The notes: a model not told the origin generated them from the sequence alone. A DNA stretch of 64,000 bases from Candidatus Moraniibacteriota bacterium (GCA_030648835.1 JAUSGT010000002.1:200081-264080), one strand, 5' to 3'; shown: positions 7,871 through 46,559, numbered from the stretch's first letter. Numbers and translations: made by a program.

Positions 7871-7941
7871 CGGAGTGTAGTATAGTGGTAGTACGCAAGG
7901 CTGGGGGTCTTGTAGTCCGGGTTCGATTCCCGGCACTCCGA
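7871..7941 (+). tRNA. tRNA-Pro (anticodon GGG)
   Basis: Manual cloverleaf: acceptor cggagtg/cactccg, D-arm gtat/gtac, anticodon stem caagg/tcttg with loop ctGGGgg, T-arm ccggg-ttcgatt-cccgg, discriminator A. CCA is not encoded. Confidence 0.85.
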
Positions 7942-7965
7942 CATTTAAAGTAGCGGGCATGGGGG

Positions 7966-36828: not shown

Positions 36829-38232
36829 ATGCTGCAAGAATCATTTTTCAAAGATAAGCGGATTACCGTGTTTGGCCTTGGCCTCAATACGGGGGGTGTG
36901 GGGACGGTCAAATTTCTTGTGGAGCGAGGTGTCCGCGAGGTTATCGTGACTGATATCAAGTCGCGCGAAGAGCTTGAGCCGTCGCTTCAAAAACTGGCGA
37001 AATACAAGAACGTGACGTACGTGCTTGGTCAACATCGGCCGGAGAATTTCACGCACGTTGATATGGTAATCAAAAATCCCGTCATCCCTTGGACGAATGA
37101 ATATGTGAAGTTGGCAGAAAAGCATGGCGTACCGGTAGAGATGGATTCAAGTATCTTTTTTGCGTTGTGTCGGGTACCGATAATCGGTGTGACAGGAGCC
37201 AAAGGGAAGACGACGACGGCGACTTTGATTGCGCATATATTGGAAAAAGCCGGCAAATCCGTTACCCGCGTCGGCATTGGACAGGCAGGCGTTCTCGGAA
37301 CGTTGGGGGATATTACACCGGAAAGCGTTGTCGTGTTCGAGCTTTCTTCATGGCGGCTTTCGGCGCTTGGTCGTCTCAAAAAAAGTCCGCACGTAGCTGT
37401 TTTGACAAATATCTATCCGGACCACCTCAATTATTACAAGACAATGGCCGCGTACATTGCCGACAAAAAAAATATCTTTTTGTTTCAGAAACAGAAAGAT
37501 ATTTTGGTAGCCAGTTTCGATGATGTGGAAATACGCACCATGGCGCAAGATGCCAAAGGAATACTGCTCTGGTTTTCCAAAGGACTGGAGGTCGATGGCG
37601 ATGGCGCATGGGTGAAAGACGAAAAAATATATATACGCAGACAAGGGAGCGTACAGGAGTTGCTTCCGCTCGAACACGTCCCTTTCAAGGGTGAACACAA
37701 TATGGGGAATATTGTGGCGGCGGTTGTTGCAACTCTGGCTTACGGAATATCTCCGAAACAAATTGCCAGCGGGATAAGGAGTTTTGTCGGATTACCGCAT
37801 CGTTTGGAGTATATAGGAGAGAAAAAGGGTGTTGGGTATTACAACGATACGGCGGCGACAATACCGGAAGCAACCATTGCCGCCCTGCGTTCTTTTACGG
37901 AGCCGGTTATTCTTATTGCCGGAGGGAGCGATAAACGCCTGGATTTCGGCACGTTGGCCAAAGAAATTCTTAAACGTTCCAAGGGGCTGATTCTTTTCAA
38001 GGGTGATGCGACGGAAAAACTTTTGCAAGCGCTGAAAGAAGCGCTGCCCGCAGGGGAAAAGGAACGTTCTTTTGAGGTAGTGGAAAGCATGGCTAAGGCA
38101 GTGGAATTGGCAACTCGCGGTGCGGAACCGGGCGATATCGTTCTTCTTTCCCCCGGCGCGACAAGCTTTGGAATTTTTAAAAATGAATTTGATCGTGGAG
38201 AACAATTTCGCAAAAGCGTCAGTGAACTATAA
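36829..38232 (+). CDS. murD: UDP-N-acetylmuramoylalanine--D-glutamate ligase
   Basis: ITVFGLGLNTGG Rossmann N-terminus and GVTGAKGKTTT Mur-ligase P-loop. Confidence 0.9.
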   Translation: MLQESFFKDKRITVFGLGLNTGGVGTVKFLVERGVREVIVTDIKSREELEPSLQKLAKYKNVTYVLGQHRPENFTHVDMVIKNPVIPWTNEYVKLAEKHGVPVEMDSSIFFALCRVPIIGVTGAKGKTTTATLIAHILEKAGKSVTRVGIGQAGVLGTLGDITPESVVVFELSSWRLSALGRLKKSPHVAVLTNIYPDHLNYYKTMAAYIADKKNIFLFQKQKDILVASFDDVEIRTMAQDAKGILLWFSKGLEVDGDGAWVKDEKIYIRRQGSVQELLPLEHVPFKGEHNMGNIVAAVVATLAYGISPKQIASGIRSFVGLPHRLEYIGEKKGVGYYNDTAATIPEATIAALRSFTEPVILIAGGSDKRLDFGTLAKEILKRSKGLILFKGDATEKLLQALKEALPAGEKERSFEVVESMAKAVELATRGAEPGDIVLLSPGATSFGIFKNEFDRGEQFRKSVSEL

Positions 38233-38349
38233 CTTGTAGTTGTTACTTTTTCCTTTGTTTCAAACGAATCTTAGCTCCCGGTAATATATTGGTTATTGAT
38301 ACGTCCTTTCAGTAGGGGTTTTGAAGAATCTTTTTAAAATGCAATAGTT

Positions 38350-39585
38350 ATGAACAATCCTCTCGAATCTGCTCGTCAGCAGCTGGCCAATATACAAACC
38401 ATACTAAAAATTGATCCGAATATCTTCGAACGTCTGCTGTACCCCGATCGGATGATCGAGGTGGCGGTACCGGTCAAGATGGATGACGGTACGACAAAAA
38501 TATTTATTGGGTACCGCTGCCAGCATAATAACGCGCGTGGACCGTACAAGGGCGGGATCCGTTTCCATCCTGGCGTGACGCGCGAAGAAGTCATGGCTCT
38601 TTCGATGTGGATGACGTGGAAAACAGCTGTCGTGGATATTCCCCTTGGTGGCGGCAAGGGTGGCGTGATAGTGGATGTCAAACAACTTTCACAGAGAGAA
38701 TTGGAAGCCCTTTCTCGCAGTTACATGCAGGCAATTTTTCCTCTCGTGGGGAAAAATCAAGACGTGCCGGCGCCGGATGTTTCGACGGATGCCCGCATCA
38801 TGGGCTACATGCTTGATGAATATGAGAGTCTTTTGGGTGAGCGTGCTCCCGGGGTGATTACCGGAAAACCGTTGTCCATCGGTGGGTCGCTCGGTCGTGG
38901 CTACGCGACAGCGCAAGGAGCCTTCTATATATTGGAGCGGGCGGCCGAAAAACTGCATCTCGGTAAAGAAGCGAGCGTGTTGATTCAAGGGTTCGGCAAC
39001 GGCGGCGGACATTTGGCACGGATGCTTCATAAAGCCGGCTATAAGGTTGTCGCCATAGCTGATTCGAAAACGACAGTATATCGGAGCGAGGGACTCGATG
39101 TGGTAGAAGTGGATGAACACAAGCGCATGACCGGTGACTTGAAAACTTGTGAAGGATGTGAGAAGCTGCCAATCGATGCGGTACTCTCTCTTCCGGCGGA
39201 CATCCTTGTGCCTGCGGCGCTCGAGAATGCGATTCACGCGGGGAATGCGGATACCGTACAGGCGAAACTCATTGTGGAAATTGCCAACGGACCTACGACA
39301 CCGGAAGCGGAAGAGATGCTTCTCAAGAAGGGGATTACGGTGGTACCGGATATTTTGGCCAATGCCGGGGGAGTAGCTGTTTCGTATTTTGAGCAGGTGC
39401 AGAACGCGATGAACTACTCCTGGACGGAAGCGGAGGTCAATGTCAAACTGAAAGAGAAGATGGAAACGGCCTTTGAGGCAGTATGGGGTGAAAAAGAGCG
39501 TTATACTACATCTGTGCGTATGGGCGCGTACGCGCTCGCTGTGAGACGGGTGGCGCAGGCGATGCAGGATCGCGGGAGGATGTAA
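38350..39585 (+). CDS. gdhA: Glutamate dehydrogenase
   Basis: GGGKGG and GFGNGG(G)H nucleotide-binding motifs. Confidence 0.9.
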   Translation: MNNPLESARQQLANIQTILKIDPNIFERLLYPDRMIEVAVPVKMDDGTTKIFIGYRCQHNNARGPYKGGIRFHPGVTREEVMALSMWMTWKTAVVDIPLGGGKGGVIVDVKQLSQRELEALSRSYMQAIFPLVGKNQDVPAPDVSTDARIMGYMLDEYESLLGERAPGVITGKPLSIGGSLGRGYATAQGAFYILERAAEKLHLGKEASVLIQGFGNGGGHLARMLHKAGYKVVAIADSKTTVYRSEGLDVVEVDEHKRMTGDLKTCEGCEKLPIDAVLSLPADILVPAALENAIHAGNADTVQAKLIVEIANGPTTPEAEEMLLKKGITVVPDILANAGGVAVSYFEQVQNAMNYSWTEAEVNVKLKEKMETAFEAVWGEKERYTTSVRMGAYALAVRRVAQAMQDRGRM

Positions 39586-39591
39586 TTTTCA

Positions 39592-39762
39592 TTTACAAAA
39601 CTTTCTTTTTTCATTCATCGTATTTCCCGAACACTTCTGACTCACTCTGTCGAACAGGGAGCTGTCCTGTCGAGACCATCCGTCACGCTCGACTGTTACC
39701 GACTCGCTCGTCACAAATGTTACCGATAAATACGAGGTGAAGAAAAAAGGAGTCTTTGTAAA
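39592..39762. mobile_element. MITE-like repeat family A, copy 3 (lacks the central hairpin segment)
   Basis: Core cgaacacttctgactcactctgtcgaacagggagctgtcctgtcgagacc...gtcacaaatgttaccg bracketed by an imperfect ~38-bp inverted repeat. Sits immediately 3' of gdhA. Confidence 0.6.
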
Positions 39763-39790
39763 AAGAGGTAACTGTTTTAATTTCAAAATT

Positions 39791-40705
39791 ATGTACGATG
39801 TGATAATTATTGGTGGAGGACCGGGAGGAGTGGCAGCCGGAGTGTACGTAGCGCGCAAGCAATTGAAAACGCTGTTTATCACGGAGCATTTTCAAAGTCA
39901 ATCGGCGGTGTCGGCGAGTATTGAGAACTGGATCGGCACTCTCTCGATCACAGGGTGGGAGTTTGCGGGGATGCTCGAAAAGCATTTGCGGGCGCAGGAG
40001 GGGATTGAAATTGTTACGGAAGTGCGGGCGACCGCTGTTTTGGGAAAAGATGGTCATTACGTAGTGAAGACAACTGACAACAAAGAATACGAGACAAAAA
40101 CGATCATTATCGCGGCTGGTGGCCGACATCGTCATCTCGATATCCCCGGCGAAGAGAAGTTCAAGGGCAAGGGAGTTGTCTATTGTTCGACGTGTGATGC
40201 GCCGTTCTTTCGCGGTAAGTCAGTGGCTGTGGTGGGTGGCGGCAATGCGGGGTTGGAAGCTGTGGAGGACTTGTTACCGTACGCATCCGCAATCACGCTT
40301 TTGGTGCGCTCTGGTGTTCTCAAGGGTGATCCGGTGACGCAAGAAAAAGTTTTGGCGTCGGAAAAAGTAAAAGTGATGTACAATGTTTTGCCACAAGCGG
40401 TGTTGGGTGAGACAAATGTGGTCGGGCTGACATATAAAGACGCAAAGACCGGTGAAGAAAAAACATTACCGCTCGACGGTGTGTTTGTGGAAATTGGGAT
40501 GGTACCCAACACTGAATTCGTGAAAGATTTGCTCGACCTCAATCCGCGCGGAGAAATTATTCTTGACCATCGGACCAAGGCAACGTCCAAGCCGGGAATT
40601 TTCGCGACCGGTGACGCCACCGACGCCCCATATAAACAGAACAATATTTCCGCTGGTGATGGAGTAGTCGCCGCCTTGTCCGTGTATGATTACTTGCGCA
40701 GATAG
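39791..40705 (+). CDS. trxB: Thioredoxin reductase
   Basis: YDVIIIGGGPGG FAD motif and CSTCDAPFF redox CxxC. Start at the internal ATG. Confidence 0.9.
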   Translation: MYDVIIIGGGPGGVAAGVYVARKQLKTLFITEHFQSQSAVSASIENWIGTLSITGWEFAGMLEKHLRAQEGIEIVTEVRATAVLGKDGHYVVKTTDNKEYETKTIIIAAGGRHRHLDIPGEEKFKGKGVVYCSTCDAPFFRGKSVAVVGGGNAGLEAVEDLLPYASAITLLVRSGVLKGDPVTQEKVLASEKVKVMYNVLPQAVLGETNVVGLTYKDAKTGEEKTLPLDGVFVEIGMVPNTEFVKDLLDLNPRGEIILDHRTKATSKPGIFATGDATDAPYKQNNISAGDGVVAALSVYDYLRR

Positions 40706-40793: not shown

Positions 40794-40822
40794 TGGACAA
40801 AATTAACAAAAAGGTGTATACT
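40794..40822 (+). promoter_or_regulatory. Sigma70 promoter TGGACA-17-TATACT upstream of the DGR target gene
   Basis: Good hexamers at 17-nt spacing. A 5' UTR of about 150 nt follows, with a perfect 15-bp inverted repeat (ttttgccatagcgaa/ttcgctatggcaaaa). Confidence 0.5.
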
Positions 40823-40979
40823 AAGCGGTTCATTAAAAATTCATACTTTTGCCATAGCGAAGAGACTTTTCACATTTTTGGAAGCAAGGCTTCCAAAAAG
40901 AGGTGTTGTGGAAATTTTTTCGCTATGGCAAACTCGAAGACTCGAGAGCCCGCTGGCGTGTATCTGAAAGGAACAGACC

Positions 40980-41798
40980 ATGAATACTCATGGAACAGAC
41001 CGCTCGGTACCGACTATGCAACAGGTGAAGCAGCTGGGGATTTTACTTGGATTCATCCTGGAAATTGTGACCAGGATCGTTACACGCTATTTCTTCGCCT
41101 TGAACTCTGACGAAGCGAAGGCTACGCTCCAGAACAAAGGAGCCCTTTCCAAGAAAATCAAGGTTGCGCTTGCGCCGGTGTTTATGATGGCAGTCGATGA
41201 ATATGCTGCCCAACGAACGTATTGGGAAGGCATCTATCTCACTCACTACGGCATGGCTGCGGATTTCGGCGAAGTAACGGTGCCGGAGAAACCGACAGTC
41301 GGCAAGTGGCGCCTCATTTTCATTCTGAAGGGATTGACGATGAATCACGCGGCGGCCATGTACCGAAAAATTCTTGCGGCCATCGATCCACCGTGGCAAC
41401 TGGTACAGTATATCGATGATTTGGACGCGCAGATTCCTTACAACATTCGTACTTCGGCAGAATCCTATGCTCTTTGGGTACGGGATGGGCAAGAGGCTGA
41501 CGAGGAATTTCGTGCTCAAACGACCAGCCAAGCCGATCCGAATCAATTGATTGGTGTCACGCCGCTCGAGCGTCTCGTTCATGGAGCAGCCCATTTTGTT
41601 GAAACCAAACAACACCTCGACGAGAAAGGGATTACTATCTGTTCAGGTTCGCGCAATGCGGATGGCTGCGTGCCTTGCGTGTGCTCGTATCCGGACAGTC
41701 GCGAGGTGTGCGTGTTTTGGTACAATCTGGGCTATTCGTTTTCCGCTGGCGGTGTCCGTCGAACAGTAGCGCTGCCGCAGGCGGCGCAGACAGCTTAA
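40980..41798 (+). CDS. DGR target protein (variable C-terminal ligand-binding region)
   Basis: 272-aa ORF whose last ~40 codons are the VR (SRNADGCVPCVCSYPDSREVCVFWYNLGYSFSAGGVRR). N-terminal hydrophobic segment. Confidence 0.75.
   Translation: MNTHGTDRSVPTMQQVKQLGILLGFILEIVTRIVTRYFFALNSDEAKATLQNKGALSKKIKVALAPVFMMAVDEYAAQRTYWEGIYLTHYGMAADFGEVTVPEKPTVGKWRLIFILKGLTMNHAAAMYRKILAAIDPPWQLVQYIDDLDAQIPYNIRTSAESYALWVRDGQEADEEFRAQTTSQADPNQLIGVTPLERLVHGAAHFVETKQHLDEKGITICSGSRNADGCVPCVCSYPDSREVCVFWYNLGYSFSAGGVRRTVALPQAAQTA
41645..41766 (+). repeat. DGR variable repeat (VR)
   Basis: 122 bp that differs from the TR at 16 positions, all where the TR has A and the VR has T or G. Confidence 0.8.
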
Positions 41799-42106
41799 CC
41801 TCGATTCTCAACTCTTTTTCTCTTTTTTCCCCGCTGTGCGCGTGCGCGCAGCGGGCTTTTGTTTTTGTCTTTTTCCATCCTTTTCTCGAAAGCTTTGAGA
41901 AGTTGTTGTATACTACAGAAGGTTGTTAAGCCAGTCTTGCTTGGGCAAGATGATGGTTTGCCAAGAACTGAAACTGCCTGTGAGTATTTACGCATAGATT
42001 TTTCATGGTAGGAAATGATGCGACACAGCGCTCGTGACCACGAGGAACACAGATGCTCTGGCGACAGAGGTTCGGTGATAGGGATGGATACTCACAGTAA
42101 AGATGG

Positions 42107-42228
42107 AGGTTCGCGCAATGCGGATGGCAACGTGCCTTACGTGAACTCGAATCCGGACAATCGCAAGGTGAACGTGAATTGGTACAATCTGGACAATTCG
42201 AATTCCGCTGGCGGTGTCCGTCGAGAAG
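42107..42228 (+). repeat. DGR template repeat (TR)
   Basis: Non-coding cognate of the VR with A at all 16 variable positions, rich in AAC/AAT codon-equivalents. The overlapping ORF 42015-42281 is probably not a gene. Confidence 0.8.
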
Positions 42229-42249
42229 TTTCAACACAAGAACATCCCG

Positions 42250-42624
42250 CTAGAGTGCGGGATTTTGTGTCAGGTATTTGATCCAACCATTCGTCATTTT
42301 GGAAGTTTCAACGAGGAGAGCAGCTACCTCGATGTATGATTTTTCAGGGATGACCTTTTGTTCATATTCTATGCGCACCAGGTGTTTCAGGATTTCCAGA
42401 GAGACGCGTACATGCTCGAGTATTTCTCGTTTCTGATATTTCTGCGTGAGCGAGGCGCGAAGGATACCGCTCATGGTTTCTAGCGTGAGATGCTCAATAA
42501 CCTGGTGGATACCGAGTTTATCTCGTTTGGGAATCTTGTGTCCAATTTGGTACAGAGTGGCATATACTTGTTTGATACTATGAACAATCGAAATATCATT
42601 ACTCCGAAGGGGGGGGGGTAACAC
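42250..42624 (-). CDS. avd: Avd-like accessory variability determinant (four-helix-bundle family)
   Basis: 124-aa helical protein between the TR and the RT. Size and placement are typical of DGR Avd, though it is divergently oriented. The N-terminal PPP is encoded by a C10 tract. Confidence 0.55.
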   Translation of the reverse strand: MLPPPLRSNDISIVHSIKQVYATLYQIGHKIPKRDKLGIHQVIEHLTLETMSGILRASLTQKYQKREILEHVRVSLEILKHLVRIEYEQKVIPEKSYIEVAALLVETSKMTNGWIKYLTQNPAL

Positions 42625-42715
42625 TAGAGGAAATTTTTTTCATGATATTATCAGTGTAGCAAATCTTCTCGCCGCTTGGAAAGAGTTTCGGAAGGGAAAA
42701 AGGAAAAAAGGTGAT

Positions 42716-43672
42716 GTGGCTTTGTTTGAATTTCAACTGGAAGACAACTTACTGCAACTGCATCAAGAGCTGGCTTCCCAGACCTACAGGCACGGTCCCT
42801 ACGAAGGTTTTTATGTTTCTGATCCCAAGTTGAGGCACATTCACAAAGCTAGTGTGCGCGATCGAATTCTGCATCAAGCGATTTTCCGTGTGCTATATCC
42901 GATTTTTGACGCGCATTTTATTTATGATTCGTATTCATCGCGCGTTTCCAAGGGTACCCACTTTGGCGTGAAGCGCCTCTTGCAAGCCTGTCGCAAAGTA
43001 AGCGAGAATTGGAAAGCTCCGGCGTACGCGCTGAAATGTGATATACGCAGGTTTTTTGATTCGATAGATCATGCAATTTTGCGCAAGCTCGTCGTAAAGA
43101 AAATTACCGACCATAAGACGCTATGGTTGATCGATATCATTTTTGCAAGCTTTGAGAAAGAAAAAGGGAAAGGACTGCCGCTCGGAAATGTCACCAGCCA
43201 GCTTTTTGCCAATATCTATCTCAATGAGCTGGATCAATTCGCGAAACATACATTGAAGGCGAGGCATTACTTCCGTTATTGCGATGATTTTATTATTGTT
43301 CACCGCAATCGGATTTTTCTTGAAGAAGCATTGGTAAAAATAAGAGCCTTTGTTTCTGAAACATTGTTTTTGGAACTGCATCCTTATAAAGTGGAAATCC
43401 GCAAAGTCAGTCAGGGAATCGATTTTCTGGGCTATGTCATTTTGCCACACCGGACAGTCGTGCGGATGGCTACCAAGAGCCGTCTACTACGAAAGTTAAA
43501 CGATGCCCGAAAAAACTTTCGGACCGGGAAGATAACAGGAGAGACGTTTGGAAGTATTATACATTCTTACCTCGGCGTACTTTTACACTCACGGAACCGG
43601 AGAATAAGAAGATGGGTATGGAAGTTACGCGAGTTGACACAAAGCGGAGATAAAAATGTAAAGTGGCGGTGA
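42716..43672 (+). CDS. DGR reverse transcriptase
   Basis: RT motifs DIRRFFDSIDH (A), LPLGNVTSQLFANIYLNELD (DGR-type motif 4/B) and RYCDDFII (YxDD). Conserved N-terminal residues continue in frame upstream to about 42647 without a canonical start codon. Confidence 0.85.
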   Translation: MALFEFQLEDNLLQLHQELASQTYRHGPYEGFYVSDPKLRHIHKASVRDRILHQAIFRVLYPIFDAHFIYDSYSSRVSKGTHFGVKRLLQACRKVSENWKAPAYALKCDIRRFFDSIDHAILRKLVVKKITDHKTLWLIDIIFASFEKEKGKGLPLGNVTSQLFANIYLNELDQFAKHTLKARHYFRYCDDFIIVHRNRIFLEEALVKIRAFVSETLFLELHPYKVEIRKVSQGIDFLGYVILPHRTVVRMATKSRLLRKLNDARKNFRTGKITGETFGSIIHSYLGVLLHSRNRRIRRWVWKLRELTQSGDKNVKWR

Positions 43673-43682
43673 TTGACGAGAT

Positions 43683-43711
43683 GGTAAAAACGTGCTACAA
43701 TGGGTGTACAA
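43683..43711 (+). promoter_or_regulatory. Sigma70 promoter TTGACG-17-TACAAT
   Basis: Near-consensus hexamers immediately after the RT stop. Confidence 0.5.
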
Positions 43712-43717
43712 GTTTGA

Positions 43718-43971
43718 GGCGGGCCGCCACGACTGGGTCGGGCGAGCCTCGCCAAAACGGCGGGAGTTTCATGGGTGAAACGTCCGTTTTTCTTTTTCTA
43801 GGAAGGTCGGCAATGAAAATTGTTACTCTCCCTAGGGGAAATGTTCATTAAAAACAAAAACCAAAACAAAAAACAAAAACCTTTGTTTTCACCAAAAACA
43901 AGGCAAGTTCTCTTGCCTTGGCCTCTCGAAAAAGAGGCCAGATAGGCCGCTAACTCTTTAGCGGTCTTTTT
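43718..43971 (+). ncRNA. Candidate non-coding or leader transcript (GC-rich structured 5' part, CA-rich tract, terminator)
   Basis: Bounded by a promoter and a terminator hairpin (ccgctaa...tagcgg + T-run). Contains an (AAAAC)n-like tract. Only very short ORFs. Confidence 0.3.
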
Positions 43972-44011: not shown

Positions 44012-44141
44012 CCCGGTAGTAGAACTTCGAAAGTTTTGGTATAGTAACGATATCTTCGGTATTCCTGCAATATGGGCTTTGTTGAAGCAAAAAATATAAT
44101 TCTTTTTTAAAACTTCGTTTGTTCGAAGTTTCACTACCGGG
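44012..44141. repeat. Inverted 20-mer pair R1/R2 (cccggtagtagaacttcgaa ... ttcgaagtttcactaccggg) abutting the murA start codon
   Basis: 18/20 complementary arms about 90 bp apart. The right arm ends 1 nt before the murA ATG. Confidence 0.55.
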
Positions 44142-44142
44142 T

Positions 44143-45405
44143 ATGGAAGTTTTTGAAATCGAGGGCGGAAAACGGCTCAAAGGACGGATTGCTGTTTCGG
44201 GACTGAAGAATGCCGCAACGCCCATTATTGCCGCGACGCTTCTCTCCAAAGAACCATGCGTCTTGAAAAATATCCCTCGTATCGAGGATGTTTTTCGCAT
44301 GCTGGAAATCTTAGAGAGCATGGGAGCGACAGCCAGGTGGCAGGGGCGGTCAACGGTGATGATCGATACGCGCGCGGTTGATCCAAAAAAAATAGACCAG
44401 GACAAAGTCAAGCGCTTACGTTCGTCGATTTTTCTTCTGGGAGCTTTAGCCGGTCGTTTTGAAAAATTTCATTTGCGGCAACCCGGCGGGTGTGTCATCG
44501 GCGCGCGTCCGGTAGAAACGCACATTGATGCTTTGACAAAACTGGGAGTGAAGATTGTCTCGGATGAAAAAGGGTATGCCGTCGATGCCGGAGGGAGGCA
44601 GAGTGCCAACATAGTGCTCAAAGAGTTTTCCGTGACAGCGACGGAGAATGCGATGCTTTTGGCCGCGACGCTTCCCGGAGTTACACAGATAAAAATTGCC
44701 GCTTGTGAACCGCACGTCGAAGATCTTGGACATTTTCTCGAAAAGATGGGCGCGCGGATCGAAGGACTGGGAACCCATACGCTTCGGATAACGGGCAAGA
44801 AACGACTCATCGGTGTGACACATACGATCGTTCCCGATCACAACGAGGCCGCGACATTTCTCATTCTTGGCGCGGCTACCGGAAGCGAAATCGCTGTCGT
44901 CAACGCTCGGAAAGAACACTTGGATATTGTTCTTGAGAAATTGGAGGAGTTTGGGGTTCGTTTCACGGTAAAGAAAAATGAGATTACGGTGCATCCCGCC
45001 AAAAAATTACGAGCTGTTTCAAAAGTCGACACCCGCACGTATCCCGGAGTTCCTACCGAGACGCAAGCGCTCTTCGGTATGCTCGCGACGCAGGCGGAGG
45101 GGGAGACACTCATTTTTGAAACTTTGTATGAAGGGCGTTTCAACTACATTCCCGAACTGGTGAAGATGGGAGCCAGAGCGACTATTCTCAATCCGCATCA
45201 GGTTATTGTTTCAGGGAAGACGCCACTCAAAGGGACAGTCATAAAGAGTTTTGATTTGCGCGCGGGGGCGACGCTTATTATCGCCGCGCTGGTCGCTCGG
45301 GGGAAGACGATTATCGAAGATATTTATCAGGTGGATCGCGGCTATGAACGTATCGAAGAGCGTCTGCAGAAAATTGGCGCGCGGATACGCCGGGTAGATT
45401 TGTAG
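44143..45405 (+). CDS. murA: UDP-N-acetylglucosamine 1-carboxyvinyltransferase
   Basis: MEVFEIEGGKRLKGRIAVSGLKNAATPIIAA EPSP-synthase-fold N-terminus. Start at the internal ATG. Confidence 0.9.
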   Translation: MEVFEIEGGKRLKGRIAVSGLKNAATPIIAATLLSKEPCVLKNIPRIEDVFRMLEILESMGATARWQGRSTVMIDTRAVDPKKIDQDKVKRLRSSIFLLGALAGRFEKFHLRQPGGCVIGARPVETHIDALTKLGVKIVSDEKGYAVDAGGRQSANIVLKEFSVTATENAMLLAATLPGVTQIKIAACEPHVEDLGHFLEKMGARIEGLGTHTLRITGKKRLIGVTHTIVPDHNEAATFLILGAATGSEIAVVNARKEHLDIVLEKLEEFGVRFTVKKNEITVHPAKKLRAVSKVDTRTYPGVPTETQALFGMLATQAEGETLIFETLYEGRFNYIPELVKMGARATILNPHQVIVSGKTPLKGTVIKSFDLRAGATLIIAALVARGKTIIEDIYQVDRGYERIEERLQKIGARIRRVDL

Positions 45406-45417
45406 AAAAAAGATATG

Positions 45418-45540
45418 CCCGGTAGTAGAATTTCGACCAGGCAATTTCAGGAGTGTATACACTAAGTTTAAACCAGAGGATTAAGAAGTGGCATAAGTTT
45501 CTTTGATGTATTAAATACATTGTCGAAATTTCACTACCGG
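45418..45540. repeat. Inverted 19-mer pair R3/R4 (cccggtagtagaatttcga ... tcgaaatttcactaccggg) abutting the mreB start codon
   Basis: Same architecture as R1/R2, with compensatory C:G to T:A changes in both arms. Confidence 0.55.
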
Positions 45541-45542
45541 GT

Positions 45543-46559
45543 ATGAAATCGATGTTTGTACGAAAAATCGGTATTGATCTCGGGACGACGAATACCCTGG
45601 TATTCGTGCCCGGCAAAGGAGTCGTCGTCAATGAACCTTCGGTGGTGGCGATTTCTTTGCTTGAGAACAAAGTGTTGGCTGTCGGGAACGAGGCCAAAGA
45701 AATGCTGGGGCGCACGCCGGATACGATCATCGCCAGCCAGCCACTGAGAGATGGAGCCATCGCCGATTACCGCGTGACGGAGGCGATGCTCAAATATTTC
45801 TTGAATCGCGTGAGCGGTCGGATTCGTTTTTTTCGTCCGGAAGTGGTCCTCTCTATTCCGGCCGGTGTCACTTCAACGGAGCGACGTGCTGTCATTGACG
45901 CGGCGCTCAAGGCCGGTGCCAAAGCGGCGTACGTGGTGAAGGAGCCGATTTTGGCGGCCATAGGCGCGGGTATCCCGATTCACGCGGCGCAGGGGAATAT
46001 GATCATCAATGTCGGTGGTGGCACATCGGAGATTGCTATCATTTCTCTTGGTGGTATCGTGGCGGCGCACAGCGCCCGCGTTGGCGGTAACCGGATTGAT
46101 CAGGCCATTTCCGATTACATCAAGCGCAAATACAGTTTGGCTATCGGTGATCGGACAGCAGAGGAAATCAAAATAAAAATCGGATCAGCCATCGCTCAGG
46201 TGAAGGAGGACCACGTAGAAGTGCGCGGTCGCGATCTGATGGGGGGATTGCCGAAAACCGTCCTCATTTCTTCCAACGAAGTGACGGAAGCTATTCAGGA
46301 TGAGTTACGGGAAATCATCAATGTTATCAAGACTGTCCTTCAAGAAACACCGCCGGAATTGGCGGCGGATATTATGGACAAGGGGATGGTACTTTCGGGA
46401 GGGACAGCTCGGCTCAAGCATTTGGATCAGCTTATTTCCAAAACTATCAACGTGCCGTGTTATGTGGCGGATGACCCAGCATTGTGCGTGGTGAAAGGCA
46501 CCGGCATCGTACTGGAGAATCTGGAAGTGTATAAAAGGAGCATTATGCTTGCAAAATAG
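45543..46559 (+). CDS. mreB: Rod shape-determining protein MreB
   Basis: IGIDLGTTNTLVFV actin-fold phosphate-1 motif. Confidence 0.9.
   Translation: MKSMFVRKIGIDLGTTNTLVFVPGKGVVVNEPSVVAISLLENKVLAVGNEAKEMLGRTPDTIIASQPLRDGAIADYRVTEAMLKYFLNRVSGRIRFFRPEVVLSIPAGVTSTERRAVIDAALKAGAKAAYVVKEPILAAIGAGIPIHAAQGNMIINVGGGTSEIAIISLGGIVAAHSARVGGNRIDQAISDYIKRKYSLAIGDRTAEEIKIKIGSAIAQVKEDHVEVRGRDLMGGLPKTVLISSNEVTEAIQDELREIINVIKTVLQETPPELAADIMDKGMVLSGGTARLKHLDQLISKTINVPCYVADDPALCVVKGTGIVLENLEVYKRSIMLAK

Follow-up and report, generated by a model that had tools for sequence, protein, structure and literature searches.

A candidate slipped-strand switch at the overlapping starts of avd and the reverse transcriptase gene in a diversity-generating retroelement of Patescibacteria

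The locus described here raises the question of how a diversity-generating retroelement (DGR) that possesses all of its parts could be expressed when a run of ten guanines, as assembled, puts the gene for its reverse transcriptase (RT) out of frame with the start codon. The element is chromosomal and its host is a Candidatus Moranbacteria MAG; the stretch of DNA that we analysed (hereafter the window) has a length of 64 kb. A first-pass annotation had placed a complete DGR in it, and all four components were found, at positions 40794-43672. The parts list is therefore full, but the word complete has to be qualified by the frame of the RT gene. Taken as a whole, the locus is likely to be a chromosomal DGR of the Patescibacteria clade, with the layout target-VR/TR/(avd)/RT, which carries a candidate slipped-strand switch at the G run.

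Components and layout of the element

The target gene (40980-41798, forward strand) encodes 272 amino acids, with four helices in its N-terminal part and, after them, a C-type-lectin/FGE-like domain containing the variable repeat (VR; 41645-41762, forward strand). As the annotation had it, this ORF ends in the VR, which encodes residues 222-261, near the C-terminus. A repeat search paired 41645-41767 with 42107-42229 (123 nt, 85% identity, offset 462) across a gap of 339-340 nt, in agreement with the near-identical repeat described 340 bp downstream; within this pair, the 118-nt core of the template repeat (TR; 42107-42224, forward strand) corresponds to the VR. The core contains 16 mismatches, all of them with A in the TR and T, G or C in the VR; since 29 of the 118 TR nucleotides are adenines, the chance of A-only mismatches is (29/118)^16 = 1.8e-10. 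In the target frame, all 16 mismatches fall on the first or second codon position, as do 27 of the 29 TR adenines, and the mismatch columns of the VR are hypervariable across the target protein family. A VR inside the coding sequence of a target, mostly at the C-terminus of a C-type-lectin or Ig fold, and TR adenines at codon positions 1-2 are among the marks of a DGR, and the target gene shows them. No further VR-like copy was found in the 64-kb window. It was reasonable to describe the TR as non-coding, but an 88-aa ORF (42015-42281) covers it and was called as a gene in one assembly; this ORF is only an in-frame shadow of VR-like sequence. The GC-rich 3' end of the repeats (GCTGGCGGTGTCCGTCGA) is identical in VR and TR, the sequences diverging beyond it, and the motif GAAGTTTCA at the 3' edge of the TR (42225-42233, forward strand) directly follows the TR in 56 of 61 related loci.

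Variation among relatives is directed to the same positions. The TRs of loci L001 and L002 show 0 differences in 117 positions and their VRs 18 in 117, all at A-sites, the remainder of the locus differing by ~8%. The only six N's of contig L014 all fall in the VR, opposite TR adenines, and one related population contained two VR haplotypes differing at A-sites. The two assemblies of the window itself derive from one sample (SRR13727527) and have identical sequences. Misincorporation opposite TR adenines is the established mechanism of DGRs. From the A-only pattern we infer that RT and Avd would copy the TR RNA into cDNA in this manner, and that the cDNA would then replace the VR, rewriting up to 29 positions, almost all of them codon positions 1-2, in the C-terminal C-type-lectin-like domain of the target.

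The proposal that the target is an envelope or secreted protein found no support: it has neither a signal peptide nor a Pfam domain, and its N-terminal hydrophobic helix is only borderline (Kyte-Doolittle maximum 1.67). Membrane domains that can be recognised are, as a rule, missing from the targets of CPR DGRs (Roux et al. 2021, PMC8144416). Neither the Pfam FGE-sulfatase and DUF1566 families nor Foldseek gave a match to the target, none was found for its N-terminal four-helix part, and its identity to the DGR variable proteins TvpA (2Y3C), Mtd (1YU0) and TaqVP (5VF4) is only ~10%.

The gene for the accessory variability determinant (avd; 42250-42643, reverse strand) reads, as assembled, from a GTG at 42624 to 42250 and encodes 124 aa. 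Its product scores above the cut-off of Pfam PF22296 bAvd (42.5 bits, cut-off 40) and below that of NCBIfam NF033474 DivGenRetAVD (53.7 bits, cut-off 80). The PF22296 match bears out the Avd-sized gene that had been recognised here, but a detail of the layout had been missed, namely that avd lies on the opposite strand. The order in the window is target-VR, TR, avd on the reverse strand and then RT, and TR-(avd)-RT with an inverted avd is the known 'B3' layout (Wu et al. 2018, PMC5758913). Of 65 related loci, gathered with a 21-sequence alignment, 61 share this layout and have A-biased VR/TR pairs. That DGRs are plentiful in Patescibacteria with exactly this gene layout is already known, and the DGR as such adds little new.

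The RT gene (42580-43672, forward strand; conserved body 42638-43672) matches PF00078 with 77 bits. It carries the DGR-specific motifs that had been read in it, LGNVTSQLFANIYL at 43181-43222 and YCDD at 43277-43288, and its LGNVTSQ fits the DGR motif [LIV]GxxxSQ. In a PDB search the best solved relative was the BPP-1 bRT (8ub7; 156 bits, E 1e-44), against 79 bits for the group II GsI-IIC and 66 bits for a retron-type RT, which places the enzyme closer to DGR RTs than to group II or retron RTs. We regard it as nearly certain that the region is a DGR.

Several candidate transcription signals accompany these genes. A consensus scan found a promoter-like site upstream of the target gene (TGGACA-17-TATACT, 40794-40822, forward strand; 10/12 matches, a pattern only), and an intrinsic-terminator-like hairpin with a T run follows this gene (41830-41865, forward strand; an 11-bp stem with 9 GC pairs, then CTTTTGTTTT). 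A GC-rich 8-bp hairpin located 6 nt past the VR (41769-41787, forward strand) was identified by folding as a candidate target-recognition hairpin; its role is uncertain because a VR-proximal hairpin is not conserved in relatives (median z of VR+1..+50 = -0.29). The scan gave another promoter-like site, TCGAAA-17-TATACT with TG in front (41886-41914, forward strand), which might tentatively be assigned to the TR RNA; a TGnTAnnnT element lies 166-266 nt upstream of the TR in 19 of 61 loci vs 2 of 61 control segments. The TR RNA most likely has its own promoter, and would end at a hairpin located between the TR and the convergent avd (42244-42263, both strands) that is terminator-like either way. 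Folding of a hairpin at this site gave z < -2 for 48 of 51 unique loci (median z -3.6), with stems whose sequence varies from locus to locus. A terminator-like hairpin with a T run after RT (43771-43797, forward strand) is common to L014-type relatives, and is the exception within a GC-rich structured stretch past RT (43707-43800) that is not conserved in relatives. Rfam, applied to the locus and to the whole window, returned no family except one tRNA.

The G/C run at the divergent gene starts

The G10/C10 homopolymer (42609-42618), a candidate slipped-strand switch, lies where the divergent avd and RT genes overlap with their 5' coding ends. It is the sole G/C run of at least 8, or A/T run of at least 9, in the 64-kb window, and both assemblies of the window have G10. 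As assembled, the first ATG/GTG/TTG in the RT frame is the GTG at 42716. The conserved RT N-terminal NLLAAWKEFRKGKRKK (42662-42709) is located upstream of this codon, and therefore the RT has no usable start. The frame is otherwise intact, with 344 codons and all motifs. The ATG at 42580 joins it only with G9 or G12, the lengths at which, according to the frame analysis, Avd starts at the ATG at 42643 (130-131 aa). Both genes are thus in frame with ATGs at G9 or G12; at G10 Avd is readable from its GTG and RT has no start, and at G8 or G11 neither gene is readable. The predicted N-terminal peptides would be MNNRNIITPKGGGNTR... for RT and MKKISSSVTPPLR... or MLPPPLR... for Avd; full-length Avd homologues begin M(x)PPP... 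or M...TPP....

The homopolymer or simple sequence repeat (SSR) is a property of the whole clade, not of the window alone. Of 83 related loci, 79 have a G run of at least 6 at the same site, which lies 8-46 nt before the conserved N-terminus of the RT. Its length is 9 in 29 loci, 10 in 29, 11 in 9, 12 in 2 and 14 in 1, so that 70 of the 83 have G9-G14 at the site; only 2 other G/C runs of at least 8 were found in the 496 kb of these loci. In L041 and L002 the G run is replaced by (GA)n at the same site, and in L094-097 by (GGGAC)n with at least 12 units and with scaffold gaps; none of the units (G, GA, GGGAC) has a length divisible by 3. A non-triplet repeat in the 5' coding region or promoter, of ~7 or more units in the case of G/C, is a mark of contingency loci, and the G10 run is of this kind.

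Both reading frames are maintained through the repeat. Between the run and the RT N-terminus the RT frame has stops in 0 of 79 loci and the +2 frame in 68 of 79, and in all 72 of 72 cases the Avd frame reads through the run. From the run up to the conserved core, 64 of 79 RT genes and 70 of 72 Avd genes lack any canonical start. GGG appears in the N-terminal extension of 61 out of 120 database RT homologues; more distant DGR RTs (< ~45% identity) have ordinary short N-termini without it. The upstream ATG shares the frame of 20 of 79 RT genes and of 12 of 72 Avd genes, the latter being below the chance level of 1/3 (p = 0.002).

The length of the run also varies between copies of the same locus. 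Over 2.1 kb, ten assemblies of one related locus are alike except for the length of the run and for VR A-sites. The lengths, which in short-read assemblies may err by one, were C9 in two, C10 in two, C11 in five and C12 in one, and a single sequencing run gave C10 with one assembler and C11 with another. At a second related locus, five assemblies had C8, C8, C9, C10 and C11, and only 2 further columns varied over 1.6 kb. Other homopolymers in the variable loci (A6, T6-T8) were invariant. The L104-L113 locus belongs to the groundwater series PRJNA292723, and its in-frame lengths are C9 and C12. Stable relatives also exist, with G7 in six assemblies and C9 in three. Length polymorphism among otherwise identical or near-identical sequences, another mark of contingency loci, was thus seen in relatives only. 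Together, we hold it very probable that the run is a real, conserved and length-unstable feature of this DGR clade. No description of a homopolymer or SSR at the avd/RT 5' ends was found in the literature searched, which included Wu et al. 2018 and Roux et al. 2021.

A phase-variable switch and its alternatives

Judging from the sequence, a slipped-strand switch acting on the DGR machinery appears to be the best reading. The first codons of the divergent avd and RT genes would overlap across the G/C homopolymer, and changes in its length would shift both genes into or out of frame with their start codons. The run would then be a hypermutable simple-sequence-repeat switch, subject to slipped-strand phase variation, with the mutator on in a minority of cells. 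We lean, by a small degree, towards a heritable ON/OFF switch over a site of slippage at the level of the RNA or the ribosome. To the broader proposal, that the whole Patescibacteria DGR clade is gated by a hypermutable repeat (poly-G, GA or GGGAC) in the overlapping first codons of avd and RT, we give an even chance. The below-average activity of CPR clade 2 DGRs (Roux et al. 2021, PMC8144416) counts for the switch, and the lack of enrichment of in-frame run lengths counts against it: the in-frame deficit fits a 'mostly OFF' state and fits equally an obligatory RNA or ribosome slippage.

Two lines of reasoning were abandoned. The co-switching of both genes, seen in 44 of 46 loci, was dropped as evidence because it is geometric, each distal ATG lying antisense to a His codon in the frame of the other gene. 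The idea that a dual-coding constraint (Gly3 in RT, Pro3 in Avd) keeps the homopolymer perfect was rejected because lengths of 9, 10, 11 and 12 occur, most alleles are out of frame and other repeats substitute for the run.

The strongest competitor, in our view unlikely, holds that the run is a programmed recoding site at which slippage of RNA polymerase or of the ribosome yields a steady low amount of in-frame RT and Avd at any DNA length. The run is as long as the RNA-DNA hybrid, which would suit the polymerase, and a ribosome could slip with tRNA-Gly on GGG and tRNA-Pro on CCC; CCC-C is a +1-prone site for tRNA-Pro, ribosomes stall at PPP, and IS transposases and dnaX are examples of expression limited by slippage. 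Recoding would also agree with the rarity of in-frame DNA alleles (for Avd, 12/72, p = 0.002), with run lengths that cluster at 9 or more, and with one base too many as the commonest state (33 RT and 35 Avd genes), a class in which the ATG frame stops 0-4 codons past the run in 30 of 33 loci. However, one-too-many and one-too-few classes both exist (33 vs 17), so that a frameshift in one fixed direction would not serve. Only in 6 of the 33 loci is the run followed immediately by a stop, and an RF2-like +1 frameshift, which would fit just these, was discarded as a general explanation. Furthermore, the (GA)n and (GGGAC)n repeats at the site are not classical slippage sites for polymerase or ribosome, and the length polymorphism is seen in the DNA itself.

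It is improbable that the run serves as non-coding nucleic acid, whether as a promoter or 5'-UTR spacer, by mimicking a Shine-Dalgarno sequence or by forming a G-rich structure, and that both genes start downstream of it by unconventional initiation. Such a role would not call for two frames that are stop-free through and past the run (0/79, 0/72) beside a neighbouring frame with stops in 68/79, nor does it find an ATG, GTG or TTG from the run to the conserved core in 64/79 RT and 70/72 Avd genes; in addition, many database ORFs read the run as GGG or PPP. These observations stand against several that favour the idea: all repeat variants are purine- or G-rich on the RT-sense strand, (GGGAC)n matches the G-quadruplex consensus, a sigma-70-like match at 42572-42599 would put the transcription start right at the run, and some RT homologues start with M directly before the FH motif. 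The Shine-Dalgarno form was rejected, as the avd strand is poly-C, which cannot serve that gene as a Shine-Dalgarno, and most loci have no start at a suitable distance.

No more probable than a non-coding run is a decaying, inactive DGR whose RT start was lost by frameshift, the length differences elsewhere being assembly errors. The RT frame is otherwise intact over 344 codons with every motif, TR and VR are intact with differences at A-sites only, and decay does not explain a run placed exactly here in 79 of 83 loci with RT identities of 51-85%. Four lengths in ten assemblies among which otherwise only the VR differs are far above normal consensus error, and T8 and other homopolymers are invariant. 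This has to be weighed against an RT that, as assembled, has no start upstream of its conserved N-terminus, against two assemblers that gave two lengths from one read set, and against a relative (L098-L103) in which the run is G7, the gene calls for avd are split or weak and the only call of the RT begins at an internal start. Many inactivated DGRs exist in databases (Wu et al., PMC5758913).

Finally, that the region is no DGR at all, and that a group II intron or retron-type RT lies beside a chance repeat, has next to no likelihood: the top match of the RT in NCBIfam, which lacks a DGR-RT model, is a group II intron RT/maturase model (146 bits, below its cut-off of 300), and several sources label homologues 'retron-type RT', but this identity is refuted for practical purposes by the A-only mismatches, a pattern repeated in 61 loci, and by bRT as the best solved relative, 2-fold in bits, to which are added the [LIV]GxxxSQ motif, an RT that by its length would be too small for the maturase/endonuclease parts of intron-encoded RTs, and the failure of Rfam to find a group II intron or retron RNA in the locus or the whole window.

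If the slipped-strand switch is true, one slippage event would switch a targeted-mutagenesis machine, and a stochastic switch over a programmed mutator would amount to a two-tier bet-hedging. It would account for the many CPR DGR genes that look frameshifted or truncated in databases and for the lower apparent activity of the clade. About half of the database RT and Avd homologues are called from internal starts or look broken because of the run at the gene starts, and homologues with the run may be mis-scored as pseudogenes. The switch would also offer a concrete and easily testable answer on the regulation of cellular DGRs, in their largest clade; the in-frame fraction of run lengths would be a read-level marker that could be correlated with VR turnover in groundwater time series.

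Comparison with known systems

The DGRs of CPR/Patescibacteria, reportedly also treated by Paul et al. (2017), are the first to be compared. The 'B3' DGRs of these bacteria (Wu et al. 2018, PMC5758913; clade 2 of Roux et al. 2021, PMC8144416) match the window in order and strands, in host phylum, in chromosomal site and in having a target without recognisable domain or membrane segment; the core cassette of the window differs from them in nothing.

The BPP-1 DGR (mtd-VR, avd, TR, brt) is similar in the adenine-specific transfer from TR to VR, in the homology of its bRT, in the Avd helper, in the position of the VR at the C-terminus of a protein with a C-type-lectin fold and in the GC-rich 3' end shared by VR and TR. 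In contrast to BPP-1, the avd of the window is inverted and lies between TR and RT, and a terminator-like hairpin stands ~20 nt past the TR; there is therefore no obvious counterpart of the long TR-to-brt spacer RNA. Likewise, the VR-proximal hairpin of Bordetella BPP-1 is not conserved among relatives of the window, the element is chromosomal rather than carried by a phage, and its target is not a tail fibre. To our knowledge, BPP-1 has no homopolymer at its gene starts.

Poly-G/C contingency loci of Neisseria, Campylobacter and Helicobacter (PMC8355987, PMC5084427) share with the present run its nature (8-12 G/C in the first codons of a gene), a length that is polymorphic between otherwise identical sequences, ON/OFF states that depend on frame, and out-of-frame products that end soon past the run. 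They differ in that here one run, as predicted from ORF logic, would serve two divergent overlapping genes. The switched function would be a mutagenesis machine where theirs is a surface antigen or a restriction-modification enzyme, the bacteria concerned are environmental Patescibacteria, and reversible switching is here a prediction from sequence.

A further likeness is found in the slippage-limited enzymes of mobile elements, in which an enzyme that could damage the genome is produced only once the frame has changed on a slippery run. IS3-family frameshifting, IS transcriptional realignment and dnaX rely on A/T-rich heptamers or A runs, with a fixed direction of shift. In the DGRs studied here, by contrast, the shift that is needed varies by locus, and the DNA itself varies.

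The retroelement, its proteins and its relatives

The first-pass annotation had placed a complete diversity-generating retroelement (DGR), with a target gene ending in a variable repeat (VR), a template repeat (TR), avd and a reverse transcriptase (RT), within 40794-43672. This claim was borne out, as all parts were located and the two repeats differ in an A-only manner. The plus-strand target ORF (40980-41798, 272 aa) indeed carries the VR at its 3' end, a repeat of 118 nt (41645-41762, +), whose second copy lies 462 nt downstream (42107-42224, +); avd is found on the minus strand (42250-42624) and the plus-strand RT ORF ends at 43672. The two copies differ at 16 of 118 nt, and at 16/16 of these sites an A of the downstream copy corresponds to T, G or C in the upstream one, a pattern with a chance of about 2e-10 given the 29 A in the 118 nt of the TR. 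Because A-only differences are the defining signature of DGRs, the downstream copy is the TR and the upstream copy the VR, and the locus is a DGR. All 16 VR changes fall at codon position 1 or 2 of the target ORF, positions that hold 27 of the 29 TR adenines. No further VR-like copy was found in the 64-kb window.

The RT showed the DGR-type motifs previously noted, LGNVTSQLFANIYL and YCDD, and of all solved structures the RT of the Bordetella phage BPP-1 DGR matched it best (8ub7, E 1e-44, 156 bits), with group II intron RTs reaching at most 79 bits and retron-type RTs at most 66 bits. In NCBIfam, which lacks a DGR-RT model, the top match was a group II model with a score far under the cut-off. 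The gene formerly described as Avd-sized gained in definition: its 124-aa ORF, located on the minus strand, passes Pfam bAvd (42.5 bits, cut-off 40) and also matches the NCBI Avd equivalog, with a score under the cut-off of that model.

The proposal that the target is an envelope or secreted protein found no support, as we detected no signal peptide and only a borderline hydrophobic helix, with charged residues within it, at residues 16-39. According to Roux et al. (PMC8144416), membrane domains and other known domains are typically absent from the targets of CPR DGRs. No sequence match to the target was found in Pfam, NCBIfam or PDB, nor any Pfam domain among its 88 homologues, all of which originate from Patescibacteria MAGs or metagenomes; in the family alignment hypervariable VR columns alternate with invariant ones (CSGSRxxDGxVPxVxWxPxxRxVxVxWYxLDxSxxxGGVRR). 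In the public annotation the target begins at Met13 (260 aa); since the first 12 residues, MNTHGTDRSVPT (40980-41015), are conserved across homologues, a start at 40980 (272 aa) seems more likely. For four target homologues (L004, L006, L008 and L012) TR, avd and RT were not found nearby, the contig ending shortly past the gene in L004 and L012 and several kb of flanking DNA being present in L006 and L008; these homologues could represent remote or orphan targets, or else paralogues that are not diversified.

Twelve genome loci and 80 metagenome loci were compared. All those with enough DNA share the same layout, that is, target-VR, a TR 340-480 nt downstream, a reverse-strand avd and the RT, and an A-biased VR/TR pair was present in 61 of the 65 with sufficient upstream DNA. 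In the six closest loci 104/104 VR/TR differences fall at TR adenines. Two relatives, L001 and L002, are ~92% identical overall, with 0/117 differences in the TR and 18 differing sites in the VR, each opposite a TR adenine. A 3,950-nt JGI contig (L014, 1317-1341; L098 is on the same contig) contains only six N's, all in the VR opposite TR adenines, which look like the assembler's trace of within-sample VR polymorphism.

The DGR lies between housekeeping-type ORFs (36829-40705 and 44119-46559), which, on reading their translations, we take to be MurD-, glutamate dehydrogenase- and thioredoxin reductase-like upstream, and MurA- and MreB-like downstream; the MurA-like ORF has Pfam EPSP_synthase in one public call. 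GC content is alike in the DGR region and the rest of the window (0.466 vs 0.477), no phage or mobile-element genes adjoin the DGR, and the DGRs of its relatives occupy other genomic contexts. The interval between RT and murA (43673-43800, +) contains a promoter-like TTGACG-17-TACAAT with TG, followed by a ~95-nt GC-rich, well-folded stretch (z -2.9) with a terminator at its end; this stretch had no Rfam match, and the terminator is the only part common to the relatives.

A simple repeat across the starts of avd and RT

The first ATG, GTG or TTG in the RT frame is GTG 42716, downstream of the conserved N-terminal NLLAAWKEFRKGKRKK. Upstream of it the frame remains open across ten G's at 42609-42618, the sole G/C run of at least 8 in the whole window, located within the open frames of both avd and RT. 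A G run of at least 6 was present in 79/83 loci, 8-46 nt upstream of the conserved RT N-terminus and to 51% RT identity, its length being 9 (29 loci), 10 (29), 11 (9), 12 (2), 14 (1), 7 (6), 8 (1) or 6 (2); only two other G/C runs of 8 occur in 496 kb of related loci. Loci devoid of the run harbor other simple repeats at the same place, namely (GA)n in L041 and, in the P0113 loci (L094-L097, about 1400-1470), (GGGAC)n of at least 12 units, with gaps in three of four scaffolds; L002 (7600-7650) has (GA)n plus G9. None of the units (G, GA, GGGAC) has a length divisible by three. Read in the RT frame, the substitute repeats give ...DGTGRDGTGR... or ...RERE..., both found in database RT N-termini. 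As the N-termini of DGR RTs under ~45% identity are short and of the ordinary kind (MKTYKNLY...), lacking GGG, the run is a feature of this CPR subclade.

Translation of both avd and RT appears to pass through the run. In the stretch from the run to the RT N-terminus, stops were found in 0/79 loci in the RT frame and in 68/79 in the +2 frame, the Avd frame was open across the run in 72/72, and 64/79 RT genes and 70/72 Avd genes had no canonical start from the run to the conserved core. In the protein database, GGG is present in the N-terminal extension of 61/120 close RT homologues (e.g. MNNRNISVGGGRGSSIFHE), full-length Avd homologues start M(x)PPP... or M...TPP..., and about half of both families were called from internal starts.

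The two genes overlap head-to-head across the run, and the distal ATG of either one lies antisense to an in-frame His codon in the other, so that one run-length class frames both. The same class was in frame for both in 44/46 loci, a count that we rejected as independent evidence since it is a geometric consequence of this overlap. According to the frame analysis, a window with G9 or G12 would allow RT to be read from ATG 42580 (or ATG 42490) and Avd from ATG 42643; with G10, as assembled, Avd would be read from GTG 42624 and RT would have no start; with G8 or G11 neither would be readable.

Instability of the repeat and its possible role

In the relatives, the evidence points to a run that is unstable at the DNA level. 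Ten assemblies of one locus from several groundwater samples (L104-L113) are identical over 2.1 kb save for the run and the VR sites, and carry C9 (two), C10 (two), C11 (five) or C12 (one), avd and RT both being in frame at C9 and C12. Their variable VR positions lie opposite TR adenines and form two haplotypes, each with several run lengths; two assemblers applied to a single sequencing run returned different lengths, C10 and C11. A second locus (L117-L121) showed C8, C8, C9, C10 and C11, with two further variable columns in 1.6 kb, and the other homopolymers of both loci (A6, T6-T8) were invariant. Pairs of close, non-identical relatives differed as well (9 vs 12, 12 vs 11 and 11 vs 10). Two loci were stable, one at G7 (six assemblies) and the other at C9 (three), and the window's own population is represented by one sample with two identical assemblies.

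The best reading of these data is that the run acts by slipped-strand phase variation of avd and RT; it would be a contingency repeat through which only a few cells have the mutator on and most have it off. An upstream ATG is in frame in 20/79 RT genes and 12/72 Avd genes, so in-frame lengths are not enriched, and the Avd value is below the one-third expected by chance (p = 0.002); a surplus of one base is the most frequent state (33 RT, 35 Avd), followed by a deficit of one base (17 RT, 19 Avd). This lack of enrichment complicates the phase-variation reading, yet it fits a costly machine resting OFF, in agreement with the lower-than-average activity of CPR clade 2 (PMC8144416). Expression by RNA-polymerase or ribosome slippage on the run would fit the same lack of enrichment equally well. 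An RF2-like mechanism probably does not apply in general, as only 6/33 loci have a stop directly after the run. The open frames and the missing downstream starts make a purely non-coding role unlikely. The sole tRNA of the window is a tRNA-Pro(GGG) (7871-7942, +), the isoacceptor for CCC; its presence is probably a coincidence, and would be relevant if ribosomes slip on the avd poly-C.

We found no link of DGRs to homopolymers, enzyme-gene slippage or phase variation in the literature covered, a set outside of which falls Paul et al. 2017, the key CPR paper, and a conserved, length-unstable repeat across the avd and RT starts appears to be undescribed.

The template repeat unit and comparison with known elements

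The TR seems to be a small transcription unit of its own (41886-42270). A promoter-like site upstream of it (41886-41914) was identified by pattern match, with weak support from the relatives. Directly 3' of the TR is a conserved motif, (A)GAAGTTTC, and ~10-20 nt beyond it a hairpin with z < -2 in 48/51 unique loci (median z -3.6), whose stem sequence varies between loci; in the window this terminator-like hairpin (42244-42263), followed by TTTTGTGT, overlaps the end of the convergent avd. We infer that the TR RNA is a short transcript of its own and that RT is transcribed separately. In a subgroup of loci (L062, L064, L065, L068 and L072) the conserved AGAAGTTTC motif after the TR is absent and the 3' flank of the TR differs, with the poly-G run still present; therefore, motif and run are separable. 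An 88-aa ORF over the TR (42015-42281, +), annotated as a gene in one public assembly, is an in-frame shadow of VR-like sequence without other support.

In the window DGR, nothing obvious corresponds to the long spacer RNA that runs from TR to RT in the Bordetella element. The B3 architecture, TR-(avd)-RT, accounts for 90% of CPR DGRs (Wu et al., PMC5758913), which Roux et al. (PMC8144416) assign to their clade 2, and the window shows the same arrangement. Taken as a DGR, the element therefore adds an unremarkable member to a clade already known, and what appears to be new is the repeat at the avd and RT starts.
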